A DNA stretch of 64,000 nt from Candidatus Bathyarchaeota archaeon (GCA_963768425.1 CAVYHV010000030.1:32001-96000), one strand, 5' to 3'. Positions 30,027-60,615 are shown, numbered from the stretch's first letter. Program-made: numbers and translations. Notes: generated by a model from the sequence alone, not told the origin.

Positions 30027-32632
30027 TTATCCTTTGACCCACCAATAGAAGATTGAGTCTGCAGCTCCGCCTATCATTGGGTTCTCTTCTGATTGTATCC
30101 CGTTGTATCCTTTCATGTATGGCTTAATTACCCAGAAGGAACTGGGTTGCTGAGCATAAACGTACATGTACAGGTTTATTGCGCTCTGTTCTACCAGCTT
30201 GTAGTCTGCAGCTGATTGAGTTGAAGTCGTTGCGGCGTCTGCCTGTTGAATTTCCGTGTTCAGTTGTTGATATTGACTCGCTTCTGAAGCAAATCCTGCC
30301 GCGGTCAAGCCACTGACTGAGAAGCCAGATGCAGATGGGTAAGTTCCTCCCTGCTCATAGAGTGCGTTGACGAAGTCACTTGGATACGGATAGTCAGCTA
30401 TCCAGCCTAGATAGTAGACCGGCATAGGATTCGTGTTTGCTACTTGCTCGGCCTATAATTGTTGCGAACGGTTCATACTCAACGGTTGCCGTTATGGACG
30501 GGTCCATTTGGTGCAATGCAGCGGCCCACATTTGGGCGCCAGCGTAGTTGATTGTATCGCCAGCTGTGACTATGATCGGAATGGTGACAGCCACATTGGC
30601 TTCTCCTGACTGCTGCATAAGGCTGGTGGCGGTGGCTAAGTCGTAGGTTGGAACGTTCTGAAGTTCGCTGGGCGGCACATAGTATGGTAAGCCTGGAATT
30701 ATTGCGCCCGCGTATCCACTTGCGAAGTCTTCACCGTAAACGTTGTTGCCCACTATTTGGTCTAAGTAGTTGGTATAGTTGAACGAGTCGCAAAATGCTT
30801 CTCGTACGTCTGTGTTAGCGAAGTAGTTTGTTGGCACGTTAAAGTTGCTGCCGAATGTTGATTTCATTAGCGACGTGTCTAGGTTTGTGTTGAATACGTA
30901 GAAGAAGCATGATAGTGATGGCACTTGATAGAGGCTGCTTTGGCCTGATGTAACCATTGACTTGATTGATGGCATATCGCTGTTTGGTAATGCTGTGACG
31001 ATGTCGGCTGATCCGCTTGTGTACAGTAGGTATGCTGTTTCAGGATCTTTGACCCATTGTATTGACACTGTGTTTGTTACTGTGGGTATTCCAGATACGC
31101 CACTCCATCCTGAGTTAGGAGTTAAGACTACCGACTGACCCGGCACATAGCTTTGTATTTGGTAGGGACCGGATGCAACAGGGTTGTTCTGGATCTTAGT
31201 GTTGTAGTTGCCTTCGTTGCCTTGGCTCTGGTAATTGTAGAATCCAGCTGGTGAGAAGGTTATTCCAGCACCGACACTCTGAAGCCAAGATGAATCTAGT
31301 ATTCCTGTTCCAAGCGGGAAGGCTATTGCGGTGAAGAACTGTGCTGAACTTGTGGGTGAGACAAGAGTGAATGTGACTGTATTTTTGCTGCTGTCGTATG
31401 TGACTGCGTTCGTTATCGCGTTGTAATCCTTTGTGTCGCTGGCGCTTGACATTATGGGTATTCCTGCGGTTGCTCCTGGAATCAAGTATTGTGCTAAGAA
31501 TCCAGTCAGGCGTTCCAGGTGCTCCACCGACAAATAACAGGTTCCTGATCATTGTATAGTAGATATCGTAGGCCGTAATTGGATCTCCGTTCGAGAATTT
31601 CTCTCCGCTTCTTATCGTGAAGGTGTATGAGGTGCTGTTTGCGTTTATTCCGCCGTTAGATGTGGATGGAACCGATGCGGCTAACATTGGCAGGAAGTTA
31701 GTTGTTGACGATCCGTCGTAGACGAGAAGTGTTCCCATGGTGTTTAGAATTACTTCATATCCGACAGTTTCGTAATCGATTTGCGGGTCAAATGAGTATG
31801 GACCTCCAGGCACGTTTTCGGCGACGTTTATAACTCCGGCGTTAGGCACTTTGGTGGACTGTGTGTACAGAGCATATGGTTGAGAAGAAGAACTGACTAC
31901 TACAGTGCGTTCAATGGTCGTGCAGTACGTCTGATTTGTAACTGAATTTTCCGTTACAATGGTTAAGCTTACAGGGTAAAGACCCGTCTGGGTATAGGTT
32001 GCTTTGACGGGGTTTGTTTCTGGATTGTTAGTGTTGCTGTTTGCGGAGACCGTCTGGTTAGCGCCGTTTCCGAAGTCCCACACGTACTCACATATGATTA
32101 CGTTGTTTGCTGAGGGTGCTTCGAGGTAACCGCCGGTGAAGTATGCTGCAGTGTTCACCGTTACTATTGGTTCGTTTGGATTCAACGTGGTGTTCATTGA
32201 AATTACAGGGACTGATATTACCGGGGCGTTTGAGGAACTGATCGAAGGCGATATCTGAATCGTGCTCACGGCGTTATTTGTAGAAGCGACAACGTTGCCT
32301 CCTGCTGTCTCCTGAGCTGTCACGAAAAATGTTCCACCGTATTGATAGGTGTGACTTGCCGTTGGCGAACTTGCGGTCAATCCAGTTGCGGATTGTCCGT
32401 CTCCGAAGTAGATTGTGGCTTGTCCGTTTGATGCAAAGTTAGATAGAGTAAAGGTTATGGCTGTGCCTTGAGTTGTAGACGATGCGCTGGCTTTCAGCGT
32501 AAACCCACTACTGCTGCTGCTGCTTGTCGACTTCGTGGATTCATAGTAATATACTCCTGCTCCTATTGCTACGATCAAAATTACAACCAGAATAATTGCC
32601 CAAATCGCTTTTCCCAATGCTCTTTTAGACAT
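30027..32632 (-). CDS. dppA: Peptide ABC substrate-binding protein (family 5) with N-terminal anchor and two PKD-like domains; two frameshifts
   Basis: TM anchor, IYFGDG and WDFGNG PKD-like motifs, SFDPQIDYE, YTFTIRSGEKFSNGDPITAYD, SGPY, GWIADYPYP. Confidence 0.85.
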
Positions 32633-33044
32633 GTGTTTTCCCCTTTCGCTGATTTTTCTTATTAAAGTTATTTTGGTGAAAGGTATTTTACCTTTCAATA
32701 TTTAACATTTGCGCTAACTCGCATATGCCAAAAAATTACTGAAAAAATATTTTACATTGACATTTTTATGTTTAATGAATTTGTATTCGATTGAACTTTA
32801 TTCAGGAATTTTGCAAAATTTGACATCGCAATGTGGCCTGCTAAATTTCAATCAACTAAACCAGCCTTGCTTCTCAATAAGGAACTTAGCGTTCAAAAAG
32901 TGAGAGCCAAATGGAATTTTATGCCTTGCCATTTACTTGAGCCTAAAAATGAAACCCGCATTCAATAAGGTCGACTGCTTAGTCAACAGCAAAATAGTTT
33001 GATGCACGACATCGGCGGTTTCGCAGGAGGCAAGACAAAAATAT

Positions 33045-34336: not shown

Positions 34337-34876
34337 TTGGGGTGTCGGATGGTTTATAAGATTTTCAAATTCAAGGACGGAAGAACAGCGACGCTTGATT
34401 GGTTAGAAGAAGACGACTTACCAGAACTTGTGGACGCACTTAACGGTGTAATCCGCGAAGACAAATTTCTCTTGGTGAACACCGTGATAACCGGCATGGA
34501 AGAAGAACGAGAGTGGTTCGAGCGAAGTACGAAAGCAGGCATGCATTACTTAGTAGCCAGGGTCGATGGCAAAGTCGTCGGGGGTGCAAGTATTCACCCT
34601 TTCACTGGCAAACGCTCGCACGTTGCCGAATTCGGTATTTTCATACGCGATGGCTATCGCAACATGGGCTTAGGAACAGAACTAACGAAGACTTTTATCG
34701 AAATTGCCCGCAAAAGCCGGTTCGAAATCATTCAGCTTTCCGTCTACACAACAAATGAACGAGCGTTTCATGTTTACAAGAAATGCGGTTTCAAAGAATG
34801 TGGCAAACTTACGCATGATGTTAAATTTGCAGATGGAACTTACGCTGACAGAATATTGATGGAGTTACCCTTGTAA
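34337..34876 (+). CDS. GNAT acetyltransferase
   Basis: HVAEFGIFI..GYRNMGLGT, NERAFHVYKKCGF. Confidence 0.9.
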   Translation: MGCRMVYKIFKFKDGRTATLDWLEEDDLPELVDALNGVIREDKFLLVNTVITGMEEEREWFERSTKAGMHYLVARVDGKVVGGASIHPFTGKRSHVAEFGIFIRDGYRNMGLGTELTKTFIEIARKSRFEIIQLSVYTTNERAFHVYKKCGFKECGKLTHDVKFADGTYADRILMELPL

Positions 34877-34942
34877 ATACTGAATTTGACGCTGATTTCA
34901 ACTGCTGTGTAGATTGGTCTGCTGACAGAGCAATAGAAATTT

Positions 34943-35437
34943 TTAACCTTTCGCTGTTTGCTTCAACACAGTTTTCCTAGTAAAAAAACCATAACGATTA
35001 TAGAAACCAAAAGCCTGTTCGTTTCCAGCAGCAACCTCTACTATTTTGGCTACTGTACCATTCTCATCCATCCAAGCCAAAACCCTTCTCATAAGATTAT
35101 CCCCAACACCCAAACCTCTATAATTGGAAGCAACAAATAACGATTCAATTTCACCTGTCTTGTCCTCATCAATGCTGCTTACACAGTACCCGACGTTCTT
35201 GCCTGTCATAACATCTGAACCAATATCCACTCTTAATTCGGCGCTCGCGGCTTTTTTTAGCCAATAAGCCTTCCTTTTTTCAAAAGTCATTTCAGCATAA
35301 TCCTGTTTGAAACATGGGGATAACTCAAGATGATGTTGATTCAAACTTTGCCAAAGCGACCTAATACCATCTAGCAAAGCTTCATTGCCACAACCGTACC
35401 GTATTTTGGGCTTATTCTGCATGTCTTCACTTACCAA
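34943..35437 (-). CDS. GNAT acetyltransferase
   Basis: GEIESLFV...YRGLGVG, GNEQAFGFYNRYGF. Confidence 0.9.
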   Translation of the reverse strand: MVSEDMQNKPKIRYGCGNEALLDGIRSLWQSLNQHHLELSPCFKQDYAEMTFEKRKAYWLKKAASAELRVDIGSDVMTGKNVGYCVSSIDEDKTGEIESLFVASNYRGLGVGDNLMRRVLAWMDENGTVAKIVEVAAGNEQAFGFYNRYGFFTRKTVLKQTAKG

Positions 35438-35457
35438 CGAGTAGTGATTGTAGGAAA

Positions 35458-36018
35458 CTATTGTCCTTTAGCGGTTTTTGTCAGTATTTTTGGTTCTTTC
35501 CATTCTTCTCTGAGAATGCTGTACAAAATAGAGTCTCTGAGTTGTCCTCTGAGGAAAAAGGGTTTGCGAATTGTTCCCTCCATCTTGAAACCTGCTTTTT
35601 CCAAAACCTTCTGTGAACCAACGTTTTTCACATCAGTTTGGGCTTGTATGCGCCCTATACTGTTTGAAAGAAACAAGTAGTCCACCATAATGTTGACGGC
35701 TTCTGTGCAGTAGCCTTTGCCTCTTTCAGTGGGAACCATGAAATAACCTATTTCCAATTGGTTTCCCGCAGGATGAATTACGTTGAAATGCCACATGCCA
35801 CCAATTCTGCGTCCATCTTTATCTTCAATGAAGAATTCGGTTTCTTGAAACTTCTTTTCTCCATAATTCTTCTCCATCTCTGTTCTGGACATCTGCATAA
35901 GAGGATTGTATTTACCGAAAACCTCAGGGTTGTTATACCATTCTGCGAGAAACGCCAAATCCTCTTTCTCGACAACTCTCAGATTCACATTTTTGCCTTC
36001 AAGCAACCTGAACACCAA
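35458..36018 (-). CDS. RimJ/RimL-type GNAT acetyltransferase
   Basis: LEGKNVNLR, EIGY....RGKGYCTEA, NVGSQKVLEKAGF..EG. Confidence 0.9.
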   Translation of the reverse strand: MVFRLLEGKNVNLRVVEKEDLAFLAEWYNNPEVFGKYNPLMQMSRTEMEKNYGEKKFQETEFFIEDKDGRRIGGMWHFNVIHPAGNQLEIGYFMVPTERGKGYCTEAVNIMVDYLFLSNSIGRIQAQTDVKNVGSQKVLEKAGFKMEGTIRKPFFLRGQLRDSILYSILREEWKEPKILTKTAKGQ

Positions 36019-36271
36019 TTCAAAATAGTTAAGTCGGTTCAGCTATAACTTTTTCGCAATGAGAGTTGACTGCTATCTGACGCTATTTCTCTTTGCTAAT
36101 GAAGCCGACTGAAACGTCTCCTTGCACTAAAATGGATTTTGTAACTATGAAAACTGGGTACCTGAGTTTATCGCAGACTTCCAAAATATTCAGGAAACAC
36201 AAGCTTTAACGACTTAAAAAACCAAAAAACATCTCTGCCGGGTGGCACTCCCCATGGTTTTACTTATAGCA

Positions 36272-36295
36272 GTGCAAGAGATGAGATTTGCACCC
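36272..36295 (-). repeat. Highly degenerate tRNA-Leu 3'-end copy (att-like scar 4)
   Basis: GTGCAAGAGATGAGATTTGCACCC matches 19/24 nt of GTGCAGGGGGTGGGATTTGAACCC at 44813. Confidence 0.5.
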
Positions 36296-36368
36296 TCACT
36301 GCAGTGGAAATACGGTCGCTTCTCATCATATTCAAAAGCAATGGTTAGGAACGATCTCTTTATTGGAG

Positions 36369-36908
36369 TTAAGGCAAAAGAAGCTCCATCAAAATCCTGT
36401 CGGCGTAAGTTCCATCTATAAACTTAACATCATGCGTTAGTTTGCCACATTCTTTGAAACCGCATTTTTGGTAGACATGAACAGCCCGCTTGTTAGTTGA
36501 AAATGCAGATATTTGAATAATCTTAACACCGCTTTTTCTTGCAACATCTATGAGTTCATTTATCAGTATTGTCCCAAGCCCGCAGTTACGGAAGCCTTTT
36601 GCAATATAAATTGCGAATTCGGCGACATGCGCTTGCTTACCTTTGAAGACCGACATGCTTGCTGCTCCAATTATTTTGCCGTCTACTTTGGCAACGAGAT
36701 CGCGCATTCCAGCTGCTCTGCTTTTCTCAAACCACTCTGGTTCGGAGTCAAGATCGGTTATTTCTTGATCCATTAATAGATAGGTTTTTTCTCTAACTAC
36801 GCTGTTTAGAACCTCAACAAGCTCAAGCAGGTCTGTCGCTTCCAGCCAACTCAAAGAAGCCGCTTGCCCGTTGTTCAAGGTCACAGTCTTAAACTGCAAA
36901 CGAATCAC
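36369..36908 (-). CDS. GNAT acetyltransferase, paralog of 34337-34876
   Basis: Same architecture; shared C-terminus KCGFKECGKLTHDVKF.DGTYADRILMEL. Confidence 0.9.
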   Translation of the reverse strand: MIRLQFKTVTLNNGQAASLSWLEATDLLELVEVLNSVVREKTYLLMDQEITDLDSEPEWFEKSRAAGMRDLVAKVDGKIIGAASMSVFKGKQAHVAEFAIYIAKGFRNCGLGTILINELIDVARKSGVKIIQISAFSTNKRAVHVYQKCGFKECGKLTHDVKFIDGTYADRILMELLLP

Positions 36909-37034: not shown

Positions 37035-37292
37035 TTAAAAGTTGTTTTTTAAATTATTTTTTTGTTTTTCTTTCTTTGAATCTTCGGCTATCTTCATTTT
37101 GGCAAGTTCAGGCTTTTGAATGTGCAAAATTATTGCGTTCGCGTGACCGCGTCCTAGCCCGAAGTCCCCCTTGAGCCAGGCAAGTAGCTCACCATATTTT
37201 CCTAGATCCTTCTCCTTTGCCAACGTTTGGAAATACTCTGGGTCCTTGCCAGTCTTAGCCTTGACATTATCTATGTAGGCTTTGTACGTCAC
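37035..37292 (-). CDS. DUF4287-like small protein
   Basis: YKAYIDNVKAKTGK...WLK.DFGLGRGHANAI; GTG start at 37292 inferred. Confidence 0.75.
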   Translation of the reverse strand: MTYKAYIDNVKAKTGKDPEYFQTLAKEKDLGKYGELLAWLKGDFGLGRGHANAIILHIQKPELAKMKIAEDSKKEKQKNNLKNNF

Positions 37293-37449
37293 AGTTTTCA
37301 CGCAGGAAATATGGTTGAAAGGGCTGCTTAAAAAATTTGTCAATTTAGCATTTCCGATTTCTGCAATAAACAAGGGTTTGCGAAACCAACCCATGAAAGC
37401 GTGTCATCCGTTTTTCGTATTTCAGATCGAAGAAAGTGAAGTCCGATTT

Positions 37450-37475
37450 TGGAGGAAGGGTGTGGATTTGAACCC
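37450..37475 (-). repeat. Degenerate tRNA 3'-end copy (att-like scar 3)
   Basis: TGGAGGAAGGGTGTGGATTTGAACCC retains the T-arm complement GGATTTGAACCC. Confidence 0.55.
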
Positions 37476-37523
37476 TAGGAAGCGGAAAGATTTTGGTCCA
37501 GTTTGATTTGAATGATGAGCATA

Positions 37524-38631
37524 CTATAGTTTTTTGAAGTCTTCCAATGCGTCCTTGAGATCCATTGCTGCGTTGAAAGATAGATCATCAGTGTCATATT
37601 CAATTCTTCTTAGACCCTTAAGATTTAGAGGCAGATCTATTTTTCTCTCAACTAACAAAACAACTTGCTTACTATATTTCAGATAAGCTGCATCGATTTC
37701 AGAGGTGACATTTGAATTTATGATGTAAAGTCCACTGTACCTTCTCTCCTGTTCAGCGGCAGCGATATTTATTATTGCACAATCACAGTCCTCCATAACT
37801 CCAAATTTATTGTTAGGAATTGGCACAGTTGTTTCTTCTTTATCACCCATTACATAGTCGTAATGAAGAAAATCTAACATTTTCATTATTTGGTCAGAGA
37901 CTTGGGTTTTGCTGTTAGATATGAAGACCCGAGGTTTCAGTTCTTCTTTTTGGGGCTCATTTGGCGTTCTTTCAGTAAAAGTCGCTGTTTTTGTGACTTG
38001 GTCGTCTGGCATATATGCAGGTGCAATGTCAAACGTAACCTGTAAACGGGCAAGGTCTCTGAATTCGATCAGCATAGCGCTTATTCACTAGTTCATTTAC
38101 GCGTAGTAACTCAAGTTCAATTTCATTATCCATAGCCATTATTTTTCCCTCAGGGGCATCGTTATCATAATCGAATGCTACAATTGTGCCCTTTTGTGCT
38201 CTTCCCTTTATTAACACTTTAACAAAAGCTTCAACCTCGGCCAAGCTGACAGGATCAGATTGTTTAATCAAAAGAGGTTGACCTCCCTCGGTAAACCCAT
38301 TTACTCCCGAAGATGGGTCGCTTGGCTTACCGTTGAATTTTTTGATTACCCACGCTTCGAAGTCACGGGGTGAAATTCTGCTGAGGCTCTTTTCATTCAC
38401 CCGCTTCTTTAAAACAAATACAGACGTGACTCCAACAGCAACTGCTACAACCGCTACGATTCCAACGATAAGGAATAAGGCATTGGAACCTCCAAATATT
38501 GATGCTTTGGTTGGGGTTGGCGGTGTTGTAGAGATTGGTGTTGATGTTTGACAATAAGATATTTGTGAAAAGACAATAACTGAAAAAAGAAAACACGTTA
38601 CAAAAATGGCTAAGAGCAATTTTTTATTCAT
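37524..38631 (-). CDS. Membrane-anchored protein with Mrr-like nuclease-fold domain and C-terminal TIR-like domain; 1-nt frameshift near 38062
   Basis: Signal peptide, Thr/Pro linker and TM; PRDFEAWV...GVNG...LIKQS...KGTIVAF; then PRVFIS...CDCAII...NSNVTSEI..AY...VVLL...LPLNLKGL. Confidence 0.65.
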
Positions 38632-38862: not shown

Positions 38863-38901
38863 TGGTGCAGCGAGTGGGATTTGAGCCCATGAACCCTGCG
38901 G
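38863..38901 (-). repeat. Degenerate tRNA-Leu 3'-end copy (att-like scar 2)
   Basis: TGGTGCAGCGAGTGGGATTTGAGCCCATGAACCCTGCG versus intact GTGCAGGGGGTGGGATTTGAACCCACGAACGCCTGCG. Confidence 0.75.
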
Positions 38902-39046: not shown

Positions 39047-40343
39047 TTGGACAAATCAAAAGGAGATGACTTAGCTTTGACAGAACCAAAATCGAAAGGG
39101 ACCAAGGGTCCTCTTCGAGTGCTCCGAAACCGCAACTTTACTCTTCTTTTCTATGCGGGCGCCGCTTCCACCGGGGGCTTTTCCCTTGGACAGGTGGCCC
39201 TTACATGGCTGGTATACGTCACGACTGGTTCGGCGCTTGATGTCGCCTACGTTGCTCTGTCAAGTACGGTAGCATCTGTTCTACTCAGCGTGATCGGCGG
39301 TACCTTGGTTGATAGACAGAACCGTAAATGGCTGATGATACTCTCTGATTTGCTAAGAGCCCTTGGGCTTGTAGTACTCGCGGTGTATCTATATTTTGCA
39401 GGATTCAGCTTGCCCCTTGTACTGGTAGTCTCCTTTGTTCTGGGCACTTTCTCAACAATTTTTAACCCCGCGCAGAGAGCAGTGATTCCATCGATTCTTA
39501 AATCTGATGAAGTTGCTGACGCTAATGGTCTAGTGCAGGTTGCAAATTCGGTCTTCCAATCTGTAGCAAGCGCGGCTGGCGGTGCTATAGTGGCGACAAT
39601 AGGCGCTGTGGCCGCTTTAGGGATTAACGCGACAACATTCGCCATCTCTGCTGTGCTTACTATGTCTATGACTCTTGGTGCTCTTGTGAAACCCAGTCTG
39701 ACAGCGCTTTAATGGAGAAGTTCGCAAAGGTTTTGTTTCTGACGCCGCCGACGGAGTCAAATACATAACTTCTAACAAGGGACTGCTTTATCTGACTGTT
39801 TCAGCCGGATTTATCAACCTATTCTTCGCCATGATAATACCATTTGTTGTAGTCTACGCCACCAATGTGCTGAACGGCGGCGTGGCTGTTTATGGCTCCT
39901 TGCTTGCTGCTTTTGCAGTAGGGATGGCGCCTGGCGCGCTTCTTGTGGGAAGAACCAAGGCGGTTGCTTATGCAGGCATTGTCTGGGGAGCCACTGGACT
40001 CTTGGCGGGAGCGGCAATGCTTTTGTCAGCGTTCACTCGAAGTTTCATCGTTGCGTTTGTGCTATTTCTCGTCGTCGGGGTCATTTCTGGATATGCAAAC
40101 GTAACTTGGCTCTCTGCAGTTCAGCTCATTGTGCCCTCCGAGATGCAGGGCAGGTACTTCGGTGTTGACCAACTGGGGAGTTTTGCGGTTATGCCAGTCG
40201 GGCAAGTTTTGGGTGCCTTTATAATCCAAAGCATGAGTGTTAAGACCGACTTTATAGTCGCTGCTGTAGGGATATCTGTAATTTCCCTTGTGTTCCTCTT
40301 ATCGAAGGATATGCGGGCGGTTGGCTACTCAGCAGAGAAATAA
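39047..40343 (+). CDS. MFS efflux transporter (MefA/EntS-like), split near 39710
   Basis: LRNRNF, WLVY.TTGSA, GGTLVDRQNRK..MILSDLLR, FNPA..A.IP; QLIVPSEMQGR. Confidence 0.85.
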
Positions 40344-43098: not shown

Positions 43099-43161
43099 AT
43101 TTTATCATAGAAGTCGATATAAATTTTCTGAAGTCTCGATTCAGTGACGATAAATGTGCTA

Positions 43162-43196
43162 GTGCAGGGGCGGGATTCGAACCCGCGAACCTCTGC
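43162..43196 (-). repeat. tRNA-Leu 3'-end copy (att-like scar 1)
   Basis: GTGCAGGGGCGGGATTCGAACCCGCGAACCTCTGC: intact T-arm with a compensatory change relative to the 44.8-kb tRNA. Confidence 0.85.
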
Positions 43197-44559: not shown

Positions 44560-44813
44560 CGCAAAAGCCAACATTGTGAAGCCTGAAGGCCGCGTCTTTC
44601 GACCAAACTTGCAAAATCAAAATGCGGTTGTGCATGGGGTTAGATCTAAACCCAAGTCTAAATTTAACGAGCAAAACCCTAATCGCTCTAACTATGAAAG
44701 TGTTCGTCCGATATTTTTCAAGGTAAATCCGGCGAGATTTAAACCAAAGACGAATTCAGGGTCGTCCAATCCATGGCAACGCTTTTAGAAACAGGCAGAA
44801 AATAAGCAAAAAG

Positions 44814-44898
44814 TGCAGGGGGTGGGATTTGAACCCACGAACGCCTGCGCGATAGGGTCCTAAGCCCTACTCCTTTGACCAGACTTGGAGACCCCTGC
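44814..44898 (-). tRNA. trnL: tRNA-Leu(TAG), no intron, CCA not encoded
   Basis: Cloverleaf GCAGGGG/CCCCTGC-A, anticodon arm TAGGG-CTTAGGA-CCCTA, long variable arm, T-arm GTGGG-TTCAAAT-CCCAC. Confidence 0.96.
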
Positions 44899-45151: not shown

Positions 45152-45466
45152 GTGTGTGTTATGTCGGAGGATCAAGGGAATTTAGATGAGCTCATAGTGA
45201 TGGAGCGTGAAGTGATGGCTGAATTGAAAAAGATGTTCGGTGATCCGGCGCTTTCAACTTTGGAGAGGGTTCGGGTTGCTAATGCTCTTGCTTATCACGC
45301 TGTGGTTTTGAATAGGCTTCAATCGAAAAAAGGTGAGGACTCCTTGTTTGATGAGGATAATTTGGGCGATTTTGTTGCTGGAGCCCACTATGCAGATGGG
45401 CCGATGCGTAGACGGATTAGAAGGGACTTTAGAGATTGGACGAGACGAATTTCGTTGAAAAAGTAA
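45152..45466 (+). CDS. Small helical protein overlapping the terminase gene; candidate terminase small subunit
   Basis: About 100 aa, amphipathic helices, overlaps the TerL start by 31 nt; function inferred from position only. Confidence 0.55.
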   Translation: MCVMSEDQGNLDELIVMEREVMAELKKMFGDPALSTLERVRVANALAYHAVVLNRLQSKKGEDSLFDEDNLGDFVAGAHYADGPMRRRIRRDFRDWTRRISLKK

Positions 45467-46899
45467 CAAACGACATGGAGTTTACAGCTTCGGTATGTGA
45501 GGGTTTACTGCAGAAACCTAAAGCGCTAAAACAGCTGGTGGCCTACAAAGAAGTTACTGACAAACTGATCAAAGACCCAGTGTTTTTCGCAGTGTTAATG
45601 TGCGGCGACAAATGGCTTACTCAAGCGCCTGAGCACCAGAAACTTCTTCGAGACGTCAACTCAAAACAGGTTGCGGTCTGCGGCAGAGGATGGGGCAAGA
45701 GCCGCGTCTTTAGCCGAAAAAATCTCTGGTTACTCTACACTAAACCCAAAATAGAAAGTTTGATAGTAAGCAGCACTCAGCGCCAATCGATGATTATGTT
45801 TGACTACTGCTACTCAACCATCATGTCCAATCCACTGCTAAGAGAGATGGTTCAAAGACCCGGAACAACCCACACAATAATAAAACTGAAACCGCCCTTA
45901 GGCGGCCGAATAGTTGCTTTGCCCTGCTCAAAAGACAAACTCAGAGGATACCACCCAGACTACATCTTCATTGACGAAGCATCGATTGTTCCAAGCGAAA
46001 TGATAACAAGCGAAATAATGATGATGCTAACAAAGCCAAAAGCAAGCTTAATCATGGGTGGAACGCCCATGGGGTCAGACCATGTTTTTCGCAAAGCCTT
46101 TCTAGATTCAAAACGTTACAGCGTACATCATTACGCAAGCTACCAAAGCCCCCTTGTCAGCGAAACGCAACTAGACGAGTGGAAAGAAGTAATGACCCGT
46201 GAAGAATGGCAACGTGAGGTTGAAGCAATGTGGGTAGAATCCACGCACACGTTCTTTTCTATGGATCTGATTGTGGGCTGCGTCGATCCTGACTTAGGTG
46301 CATCCAACGCTTACATTGAGGACATGGAAAAAGCTAAGCCGGAGCAGCTTAGAGGACAATTTTACGCTGGCTTAGACTTGGGCAAACAAATCGACTACAG
46401 TGTACTGGCAATTGTACAGAGGTTTGACAGCGGCGAAGTAAAGCTTGTGCATAAACGTCAACTGCCGCTTGGCACCAATTACCCCCAAGTCATCGGCTAC
46501 GTAGCTAGGGCAAGCCAAATCTTCCATTTTGAAAGGATAAACGTGGACAAAGGCGGAATAGGCGACGCCATAGTAGACGAATTACGCAAAGCCAACATAT
46601 ACGGTGTCGAAGGCATTTTCTTCACCGACACAGAAAAAGAAAACATGCTAAACACCCTTAAACTTTTCATGGAAAAAAGAATGCTAAAGATCACTGCAGA
46701 TGACAAAGCGCTAATCGCGCAAATCAACGAGCAGCAATATGAGTATCTGCAGCCTAAAACAGCCCAGGAATGCATACACCTCAAATTTTGGCATCCGCAG
46801 GGAAAACACGACGATCAACTGATGGCTCTAGCATTAGCTTGCCGTGCAGCTTCAAGAGCAGCGCCACCCGGTCGAGGCGCCGTTATGGGCGGAGATTGA
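45436..46899 (+). CDS. terL: Phage terminase large subunit-like protein (ATPase plus RNase H-like nuclease)
   Basis: Walker A CGRGWGKS, LRGYHPD, Walker B IFIDEA, coupling motif GTPMG, nuclease AGLDLG, VDKGGIG, HDDQLMALALA. Confidence 0.9.
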   Translation: MDETNFVEKVTNDMEFTASVCEGLLQKPKALKQLVAYKEVTDKLIKDPVFFAVLMCGDKWLTQAPEHQKLLRDVNSKQVAVCGRGWGKSRVFSRKNLWLLYTKPKIESLIVSSTQRQSMIMFDYCYSTIMSNPLLREMVQRPGTTHTIIKLKPPLGGRIVALPCSKDKLRGYHPDYIFIDEASIVPSEMITSEIMMMLTKPKASLIMGGTPMGSDHVFRKAFLDSKRYSVHHYASYQSPLVSETQLDEWKEVMTREEWQREVEAMWVESTHTFFSMDLIVGCVDPDLGASNAYIEDMEKAKPEQLRGQFYAGLDLGKQIDYSVLAIVQRFDSGEVKLVHKRQLPLGTNYPQVIGYVARASQIFHFERINVDKGGIGDAIVDELRKANIYGVEGIFFTDTEKENMLNTLKLFMEKRMLKITADDKALIAQINEQQYEYLQPKTAQECIHLKFWHPQGKHDDQLMALALACRAASRAAPPGRGAVMGGD

Positions 46900-47703: not shown

Positions 47704-47780
47704 GCCTTCGTAGCCTAGCCCGGTGGGGCGTTACCTTGGTAAGGTAATGGTCGCGGGTCCAAATCCCGCCGAAGGCTCCA
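47704..47780 (+). tRNA. trnT: tRNA-Thr(GGT), CCA encoded
   Basis: GCCTTCG/CGAAGGC-T-CCA, anticodon arm TTACC-TTGGTAA-GGTAA, T-arm GCGGG-TCCAAAT-CCCGC. Confidence 0.95.
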
Positions 47781-54851: not shown

Positions 54852-54935
54852 GTAAGAGATTTTGAACAGCCTTTTGATTTAAGTGTTCCGTTACAACGAA
54901 CAATCAGAAACACTTCAATTATTTTTTGCGATTTT

Positions 54936-54965
54936 GACCGGGGGTCCAAATCCTGCCGAAGGCTC
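54936..54965 (+). repeat. Degenerate tRNA-Thr 3'-end copy (att-like scar)
   Basis: GGGTCCAAATCCTGCCGAAGGCTC versus GGGTCCAAATCCCGCCGAAGGCTC in the intact tRNA. Confidence 0.85.
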
Positions 54966-59881: not shown

Positions 59882-60615
59882 TCCAAAACAGCCTCGGCAA
59901 CACGGTGGTGGTTTCTGTCGTTCTTCCAGCTTACAACGAGGCGGATGAGTTGGGCGCGGCTGTGGCAGAAGTAAGTCAAGCCCTAACAGCAGCAGGCTAC
60001 CCCTACGAAATCGTCATCGCTGAAGACGGCAGCACCGACGGAACAGCCGAGCTCTCCGAACAATTAACCCAAAAGTATCCATTTGTCAGGCATATACACC
60101 GAGAAAAAAGGCTGGGAAGAGGAACAGCGCTGAACAATGCGTTCCAGAATTGCAGCGGCGAAGTTTTGGTTTACATGGATTTGGACCTTGCCACTGACCT
60201 CAAATCGCTAAAACCTCTCATTGACGCCATCGCCGTTGAAGGGTACGAGGTTTCGACGGGTTCAAGGATGCTTCCTGAAAGCAAGGTTGAACGATCAACC
60301 CGCAGAAGCATAAGCTCCAAAAGCTACAATTTCCTTGTCAGACGCATGTTGGGCTCCAAAGTGCGGGACCACCAATGCGGTTTCAAAGCCTTCAAAAAAG
60401 AAGCCTTCTTGGCTCTGTTGGGCGAGGTGAAGGCTACTCACTGGTTTTGGGACACGGAGATACTTGTGAGGGCACAACGTCATGGCTTCAAGGTTAAAGA
60501 GATCCAGGTTGAATGGACAAGCGGCAAAGGTACAAAAGTTAATTTTGCTAAGGATTCTTGGAACATGTTTTGGCAAGTAACCGAGCTTTGGTGGACTCTT
60601 AAAAGAAAAGGCTAA
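59878..60615 (+). CDS. GT2 dolichyl-phosphate hexose synthase (DPM/DPG synthase-like)
   Basis: VVLPAYNE, EDGSTDGT, YMDLDL, GSR, DHQCGFKAF, WFWDTEIL. Confidence 0.88.
   Translation: MIQNSLGNTVVVSVVLPAYNEADELGAAVAEVSQALTAAGYPYEIVIAEDGSTDGTAELSEQLTQKYPFVRHIHREKRLGRGTALNNAFQNCSGEVLVYMDLDLATDLKSLKPLIDAIAVEGYEVSTGSRMLPESKVERSTRRSISSKSYNFLVRRMLGSKVRDHQCGFKAFKKEAFLALLGEVKATHWFWDTEILVRAQRHGFKVKEIQVEWTSGKGTKVNFAKDSWNMFWQVTELWWTLKRKG

Follow-up and report, generated by a model that had tools for sequence, protein, structure and literature searches.

Immunity that works through TIR domains has been charted in detail for bacteria, plants and animals and hardly for archaea, and for the Bathyarchaeia we know of no cultured virus-host system. 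TIR enzymes of the PF10137 type and of other types are NADases that become active on oligomerisation. In the CBASS effector Cap12 (TIR-STING, e.g. SfSTING) and the Pycsar effector PycTIR the TIR NADase is switched on by ligand-driven oligomerisation; these effectors are soluble, carry a cyclic-nucleotide sensor (a STING or a cNMP-binding domain) and are encoded in an operon with a nucleotide cyclase. Restriction-endonuclease folds that are often inactive and are tied to an effector occur in bacterial proteins of ~290 aa with Mrr_cat and TIR_2 domains, and in NA-iREase1 (PF22722, the NACHT-associated inactive restriction endonuclease) an inactive fold is coupled to an effector. In Toll-like and IL-1 receptors an ectodomain and a single transmembrane (TM) helix precede a cytoplasmic TIR domain. 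Finally, the Mrr-TIR-APAZ proteins of a SPARTA subclade place an Mrr-type and a TIR domain on one polypeptide of a defence system, and they are bacterial, cytosolic and APAZ-fused, have a pAgo partner and bear a TIR domain of the IPR000157 type (PMC9097488).

Here we describe a protein family of Bathyarchaeia, found through one gene in a stretch of DNA of 64,000 nt (the window), in which a membrane anchor, a nuclease-like domain predicted to be catalytically dead and a TIR domain are joined in one chain (the fused family). Its TIR domain is placed, through relatives, in the same subfamily as those of Cap12 and PycTIR, with 7un8_A as the best fold match, and the fused family has a conserved glutamate. 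By contrast, the fused family has a predicted dead nuclease as the partner domain, a membrane anchor, and no cyclase or conserved neighbour. Relative to SPARTA, it has no APAZ or pAgo, its TIR domain is of the PF10137 type and it has a TM anchor. The bacterial Mrr_cat and TIR_2 proteins and NA-iREase1 have no signal peptide or TM helix, the TIR family being another one, and the resemblance to them is a likeness and not an established homology; in the Atlas, clusters of the bacterial Mrr_cat and TIR_2 proteins are the nearest non-self neighbours with scores of 0.77-0.78, which are to be read as leads only. By TIR type the closest systems are CBASS TIR-STING and Pycsar PycTIR, and by domain pairing the closest is SPARTA Mrr-TIR-APAZ. 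A membrane anchor, the pairing of a PF10137-type TIR domain and a dead nuclease, and an archaeal host are each absent from all of these compared systems. No description of the fused family was found in a search of the main texts of openly accessible papers.

A single gene read from two ORFs

The gene is annotated with the following features.

37527..38631, minus strand: full coding region of the fused gene, 368 aa if the extra base near 38057 is skipped
37524-37526, minus strand: stop codon of the fused gene
38055..38062, minus strand: extra base that breaks the frame, in the coding-strand context CAGAGACC

In the assembled sequence two ORFs on the minus strand, ORF1 (38029-38631, 200 aa) and ORF2 (37524-38075, 183 aa), overlap by 47 nt. 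A first-pass annotation of the window had held that the removal of one base near 38062 joins them into a protein of about 368 aa. This is borne out: when CAGA at 38058-38061 is taken as a single step, an uninterrupted frame of 368 aa results, with the extra base near 38057. The two ORFs are read here as one gene because fused homologs, namely P0001 (374 aa), P0003 (505 aa) and P0005 (609 aa), which are the best matches of ORF2, have an ORF1-like N-terminus and are colinear with the window protein past the junction. For the closest full-length homolog, P0001, the junction reads ...NKRYSDRIKDIACSQVTFE... against ...NKRYADRIQ/DLARLQVTFD... in the window (the slash marks the junction), and in an exhaustive profile search with ORF2 its residues 198-374 are 67% identical to ORF2.

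The fused form is also the common one. A search with P0001 gave 177 clusters at E<=1e-5, and among the 120 matches listed nearly all are 365-385 aa long with 100% coverage and 58-72% identity, the named records being MAGs of Bathyarchaeota, Bathyarchaeia or Nitrososphaerota. Moreover, 16 genomic loci of related genes were fetched, 15 complete and 1 truncated at a contig end, and in all 15 complete loci the gene is a single intact ORF (368-500 aa), so that the homologs are indeed fused. A reading as two genes was favoured at first, with ORF1 ending about where TIR-less paralogs end and ORF2 having an internal ATG at 38012, and it was dropped because the fused homologs are colinear through the junction.

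Domain layout and membrane part

The read-through protein is divided as follows, with the assignments predicted from the evidence in brackets.

38554..38631, minus strand: residues 1-26, MNKK and then a hydrophobic helix (hydropathy peak centred on residues 10-18; AF2 helix 3-26)
38485..38553, minus strand: residues 27-49, short Thr/Pro/Ser-rich stalk (composition; pLDDT <50)
38413..38484, minus strand: residues 50-73, TM helix (hydropathy up to 2.87; AF2 helix 50-73)
38059..38412, minus strand: residues 74-191, PD-(D/E)xK fold of Mrr_cat type with the triad lost (AF2, VIA-align, Pfam, triad counts)
38299-38301, 38269-38271 and 38263-38265, minus strand: the triad positions N111, L121 and K123, respectively
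37932..38057, minus strand: residues 192-233, flexible linker between the cytoplasmic domains (pLDDT 43-65; composition; poorly conserved)
37527..37931, minus strand: residues 234-368, TIR domain of CAP12/Pycsar type (PF10137, VIA-align, Foldseek)
37698-37700, minus strand: conserved Glu311 (in NVTSEI)

The AlphaFold2 model is that of L034, the nearest homolog with an unbroken frame, which shares 84% identity with the read-through protein. Its mean pLDDT is 86; both cytoplasmic domains have pLDDT >90 and the linker, residues 196-233, is disordered. The signal peptide, Thr/Pro linker and TM helix that had been proposed earlier find support in the hydropathy, composition and AlphaFold2 helices and in the charged residues at the membrane. 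The 19-residue hydropathy has peaks centred at residues 10-18 and 52-69, and residues 1-26 are predicted to act as a signal peptide of the Sec type or else to anchor the N-terminus. Residues 27-49, which hold 6 Thr, 4 Pro and 4 Ser, form a stalk that is presumed to be extracellular; a longer ectodomain replaces it in 10 of 121 homologs (402-609 aa, e.g. P0003 and P0005). Directly after the second helix comes KKR, and the remainder of the protein is therefore placed in the cytoplasm. As modelled, the fused protein is a type-I-like membrane protein.

Nuclease-like domain

The Mrr-like fold that the first-pass annotation saw in residues 74-191 is supported by structure comparison. The model of the domain alone has pLDDT 91 and pTM 0.84, and VIA-align against 48,161 chains places 1y88_A, which we take to belong to Mrr_cat, at the top (Z 10.2, rmsd 2.7, 96 aligned), followed by FokI (9.7), BspD6I (9.1) and LlaBIII (8.7), with all 9 chains of Z>=8 being PD-(D/E)xK nucleases. 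The fold call rests on VIA-align because Foldseek with the model of this domain alone gave no match at E<=1e-3. As for the Mrr_cat family profile, Pfam PF04471 scores 13.9 bits (E 0.062) on the window domain, under the 21-bit gathering cut-off. In methyltransferase-fused homologs the cut-off is passed, with 24.7 bits for L021 and 22.5 bits for L022; the profile matches 30/39 aligned domain homologs at E<=1, and NA-iREase1 is matched weakly by 10/39 (best E 7e-4). When the PDB was queried by sequence, neither the profiles A2 (domain) and A3 (family) nor the relative P0010 gave a significant hit, the best being LlaBIII (E 0.31) and SpbK (E 0.22), and a word-based protein search with the domain gave just 30 proteins, for the most part incomplete members of this family.

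The degenerate motif (GVNG and LIK) is present as noted before, but it is not a peculiarity of the window copy. Across 121 fused homologs the Asp of the triad is found in 15, the Glu/Gln in none and the Lys in 55; the Asp position is N in 67, S in 20, T in 19 and D in 15, and the Glu/Gln position is L in 115, S in 3, M in 2 and F in 1. As judged from the aligned sequences, the nuclease triad is lost family-wide and not in the window copy alone. In alignment A2 a gradient can be seen, in which the methylase-fused forms retain GxDG...QxKQS, the membrane forms with zinc-ribbon ectodomains retain the Asp with a variable Gln position, and the TIR-fused forms are without the nuclease motif. GGQP, QSD and a WV pair are nearly invariant in the nuclease-like domain, which would therefore still be selected for some non-catalytic role.

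Two kinds of relatives were seen in passing. The paralogs at L014-L020 and L041-L052 lack a TIR domain; they combine a signal peptide, a DnaJ-type CxxCxGxG zinc-ribbon ectodomain and a TM helix with an Mrr-type domain at the C-terminus. Such TIR-less zinc-ribbon paralogs occur in 13/100 sampled genomes of the taxonomic family, with the nuclease Asp mostly kept and the Gln variable. At L021-L024, L053 and L054, an N6/N4 DNA methylase is followed by a C-terminal Mrr_cat domain with GxDG...QxK intact. From its sequence, this methylase fusion is likely to represent the active ancestor type of the dead domain, and it is possibly a single-chain restriction-modification enzyme.

TIR domain

The TIR fold of residues 234-368 is well supported by structure comparison, whereas the profile does not reach its cut-off: PF10137 on the window ORF2 scores 17.9 bits over profile positions 1-118 of 119, under the 24.7-bit gathering cut-off. 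The fused homologs score 19-22 bits. The relatives P0009, P0010 and L011, whose matches to ORF2 stand at ~1e-31, reach 58-68 bits, and membership of the window domain in PF10137 is thus only transitive, through these relatives. In VIA-align the best match is the TIR domain of SfSTING (7un8_A, Z 14.1, rmsd 2.7, 122 aligned), followed by the TIR-STING structures 9lmq and 9lmr (Z 13.0), DNPH1 (12.6), plant TIR domains (~12), MilB (11.9), SPARTA (11.8) and SARM1 (~11), and Foldseek matches 9lmq_D at E 7.9e-6.

The glutamate of the NVxxE motif is kept, as claimed before: NVTSEI is present in the window, and at the position of Glu311 the 121 homologs have Glu in 110, Ala in 10 and Thr in 1. Glu311 lies on a predicted helix (306-319) and is a candidate equivalent of the catalytic Glu of solved TIR domains; the PDB searches gave no hit at the sequence level.

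Distribution and neighbours

The distribution was followed across 400 sampled genomes of the class Bathyarchaeia. The fused form is present in 15 of 40 genomes of the window's genus, with 14 full-length, stop-free matches and 1 without the N-terminus, and in 0 of 361 genomes of the class outside the genus, where the matches are to the nuclease domain or to the TIR domain only. Judged by these matches, no genus of Bathyarchaeia other than that of the window has the fused family among the genomes searched.

The earlier statement that the gene stands on its own, with no partner, is upheld, as no neighbour is conserved as an operon partner and no operon-like gene cluster recurs across the 16 loci. 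The neighbours that the loci do have in common are housekeeping genes (eIF2-alpha, aconitase and OMP decarboxylase). Among the 104 neighbouring ORFs of these loci, 9 have PADLOC matches (E<=1e-5), which are generic (radical SAM, MTase and HD), and no CD-NTase, pyrimidine cyclase or ThsA-type partner was found. Nor was APAZ or an adjacent short pAgo found: the protein ends at the TIR domain, and its neighbours gave no such match with Pfam and PADLOC. For the fused protein itself, no PADLOC or NCBIfam model matched.

It is noted that other relatives of ORF2 have a different make-up. On two viral contigs of IMG/VR (L055:974-1549 and L056:690-1727) a 345-aa protein has a different N-terminal domain and a PF10137-type TIR domain; this wH-TIR protein is 43% identical to the TIR part of the window protein and lies ~2.4 kb from terminase and portal genes. 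Its architecture predominates among the 278 relatives of ORF2, and the wH-TIR relative P0010 matches the PADLOC candidate system PDC-S35 at 1e-8.

tRNA-Leu island

The tRNA-related features around the gene are the following.

38866-38900, minus strand: scar B, incomplete copy of tRNA-Leu(TAG) with its 3' part, 235 bp before the start codon (alignments A4, A6)
37450-37490, minus strand: scar A, degenerate fragment resembling the 3' part of tRNA-Leu, ~50 bp past the stop codon (alignment A6)
44813-44898, minus strand: intact tRNA-Leu(TAG), 5.9 kb upstream with inserted cargo between (ARAGORN, alignments)
43155-43195: another partial tRNA-Leu copy
~54930-54965: tRNA-Thr fragment

The gene had been said to fill the interval between two tRNA scars, and both scars do align to the 3' end of tRNA-Leu(TAG), scar B well and scar A, which contains an exact T-loop word at 37464-37474, more degenerately. 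ARAGORN and Rfam (E<=1) called no tRNA at the scars, and a blastn comparison of scar A with the genome turned up no tRNA either. When <=1 mismatch is allowed, the window has 7 copies of the T-loop word GGTTCAAATCC where 1.39 are expected, a number that 0 of 100 shuffles attained. One further T-loop-like word with 1 mismatch lies at window 60177-60187 and has no broader tRNA likeness in the alignment.

Related loci have comparable features. In L028, L033 and L036 the gene is preceded, at a distance of 140-230 bp, by an intact tRNA-Leu(TAG), a 3' tRNA-Leu fragment occupies the same upstream place in L029, L032, L034 and the window, and a degenerate fragment follows the stop by 50-70 bp in the window, L025 and L030, the distance being 55-70 bp in the latter two. 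The repeated 3' fragments probably derive from the tRNA-Leu(TAG) at 44813-44898. From these copies upstream and downstream, in the window and in relatives, the gene is placed at the far end of a variable island that would have grown by repeated insertions at tRNA-Leu(TAG), and it is bracketed by att-like repeats. The stretch from 32.4 to 39.0 kb is poorer in G+C, at ~0.40 versus 0.47-0.50, and no integrase was found in the inserts examined.

Several smaller observations were made in this region. The intervals 43155-43195, 44813-44898, 45436-46899, 47704-47780 and 54930-54965 of the window look like a tandem integration hot spot at a pair of tRNA-Leu(TAG) and tRNA-Thr(GGT), with partial 3' copies of both tRNAs kilobases off. 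In L028 and L033 the two tRNAs are only ~250-400 bp apart, whereas in the window they enclose a terminase-like ORF (Terminase_6N, E 6.7e-4). The insert cargo comprises UbiA, a carbonic-anhydrase-like protein, DUF996, HAD, flavodoxin and a methyladenine glycosylase. In the low-G+C stretch that adjoins the gene, four GNAT acetyltransferase ORFs are clustered at 34337-36908, two of them inverted paralogs of 179 aa each (34337-34876 plus, 36369-36908 minus), and a DUF4287 ORF lies at 37035-37394.

Proposed function

By analogy with the systems described above, we propose, tentatively, that the fused protein may be a self-contained defence or abortive-infection module with a TIR NADase. In this scheme, the TIR domain would be a nucleotide N-glycosidase, most likely an NADase, held inactive as a tethered monomer on the flexible tether, and the dead nuclease domain would be a nucleic-acid-binding or clustering module at the membrane. 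The binding of nucleic acid or the clustering by the dead nuclease domain would then gather the TIR domains and thereby switch them on. Activation by clustering is proposed because the NADases with TIR domains of the PF10137 and other types act as oligomers.

The evidence for a defence role is mixed. In its favour are the patchy presence within one genus and the tRNA-linked variable island, and an accessory character is suggested also by the wH-TIR relatives, of which one matches PDC-S35 and those on the 2 IMG/VR contigs lie beside terminase and portal genes. Against it stand the absence of a defence-gene neighbourhood and of any PADLOC match for the fused protein. Against the proposal as a whole, PF10137 and Mrr_cat are both below their Pfam cut-offs on the window sequence, and Ala takes the place of the glutamate in 10/121 homologs. 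Note also that DNPH1 and MilB, which are nucleotide N-glycosidases, score within ~1.5-2 Z of the best TIR match, and the substrate therefore need not be NAD+. A two-copy complex prediction of the cytoplasmic part with alignment A3 gave 0.18 against a mark of 0.42, which speaks neither for nor against binding.

The proximity of DNPH1 (Z 12.6) and MilB (Z 11.9) to the TIR matches also agrees with a non-immune membrane-associated protein for nucleotide processing or signalling, in which the TIR/deoxyribosyltransferase-like domain would act on a nucleotide other than NAD+ and the dead nuclease would serve for dimerisation or as a scaffold. Such a protein would explain equally the absence of defence neighbours and the strong conservation within the genus (58-72% identity among the matches listed), and the existence of paralogs with the TM helix and dead nuclease and without TIR, in 13/100 family genomes, implies a separate role for the membrane module. 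Nevertheless we consider it rather unlikely, as the best fold match and the sole Pfam family reached are those of the CBASS/Pycsar TIR domains, the gene is patchily present even inside one genus, and it lies in a variable tRNA island.

Returning to the defence module, if the TIR domain is an active NADase, the fused protein would amount to a TIR effector that is anchored in the membrane, encoded by one gene and equipped with a new kind of sensor, a restriction-nuclease domain that is dead in catalysis. Moreover, the path from restriction enzyme to sensor would then be shown, with the nuclease intact on the methylase, partly degenerate on the membrane proteins and dead beside the TIR domain, and a testable prokaryotic instance of the ectodomain-TM-TIR topology would be at hand.

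Origin of the frame break

The frame break that was noted earlier is present in the assembly, but from the sequence comparisons it is most likely an indel error of the assembly and no feature of the gene. Proteins of the related loci were matched to the whole assembly of the window (G000), with an ortholog-like match taken as >=60% identity and >=85% coverage. Frame changes are present in 12 of 64 matched genes and number 16 over 55.5 kb, a rate of 0.29 per kb, and the error is regarded as likely because 11 of 63 matched genes are frame-shifted when the gene under study is left out, housekeeping genes such as that for OMP decarboxylase included.

The base at 38057 is absent in contigs of X1, X2, X3 and X21, from three DNA peat metagenomes and one metatranscriptome, which are ~97% alike to the window and come from related strains, not from the source sample. 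The contigs of the same four runs are also one letter short at 37477, 37497 and 38633.

It could be argued that the frameshift is real in this strain, the gene being a recently inactivated pseudogene or its two halves being translated separately. The extra base lies outside any homopolymer, further split copies of the fused family are present in public protein sets, and some small probability is kept for a strain-private frameshift because the contigs compared belong to related strains. A real frameshift is nonetheless improbable: besides the other frame-shifted genes of the assembly, three additional one-base excesses occur inside the same 1.35 kb, and among the 97 columns with >=95% conservation the read-through protein departs from the family in just 1, by a conservative I for L. 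As to separate translation, the ORF2 frame has a stop three codons 5' of its ATG, and the 15 complete loci contain no separate-gene form.

The assembly abounds in single-base frame changes elsewhere too (window 30027-32698 and 39047-40343; genome C17:137681-141718 and C8:95652-99237), where an ABC substrate-binding gene is broken into three overlapping ORFs and an MFS transporter is in two pieces (Pfam MFS_3 positions 3-182 and 245-393). With ~0.3 frame changes per kb in the matched genes of this assembly, its split genes should not be called pseudogenes without read support.

Receptor-like layout

The order of ectodomain, single TM helix and cytoplasmic TIR domain recalls the Toll-like and IL-1 receptors, and animal and plant TIR domains are matched at Z ~11-12. 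The likeness is one of layout only, with no sequence relationship beyond the fold; unlike these receptors, the fused family mostly has no LRR or Ig ectodomain, and it has the extra dead nuclease between the TM helix and the TIR domain. A far-reaching version of the proposal, which we regard as quite improbable, would make the protein an archaeal receptor of Toll-like layout, in which a variable extracellular part and the single TM helix would govern the cytoplasmic TIR enzyme by way of the dead nuclease, a membrane-proximal DNA sensor or clustering switch. Viral DNA entering at the membrane, or a surface event, would lead to nucleotide depletion, and the gene would be mobile as a cassette of its own, 1.4 kb long, with att-like tRNA-Leu repeats on either side.

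That the extracellular part itself senses virus adsorption, envelope damage or a ligand and signals through the TM helix to the TIR domain, a Toll-like-receptor-like logic independently arrived at, would accord with the topology, with ectodomains ~100-240 residues longer in 10/121 homologs and with the zinc-ribbon ectodomains of the paralogs, but it is very doubtful, as most members, the window's included, have an extracellular part of only ~23 residues, which is too short to form a ligand-binding domain, and no ectodomain family was recognised.

Finally, we note that the contig from the RNA library, i.e. the metatranscriptome, spans the junction of the two ORFs, which is a weak hint of possible transcription across it.
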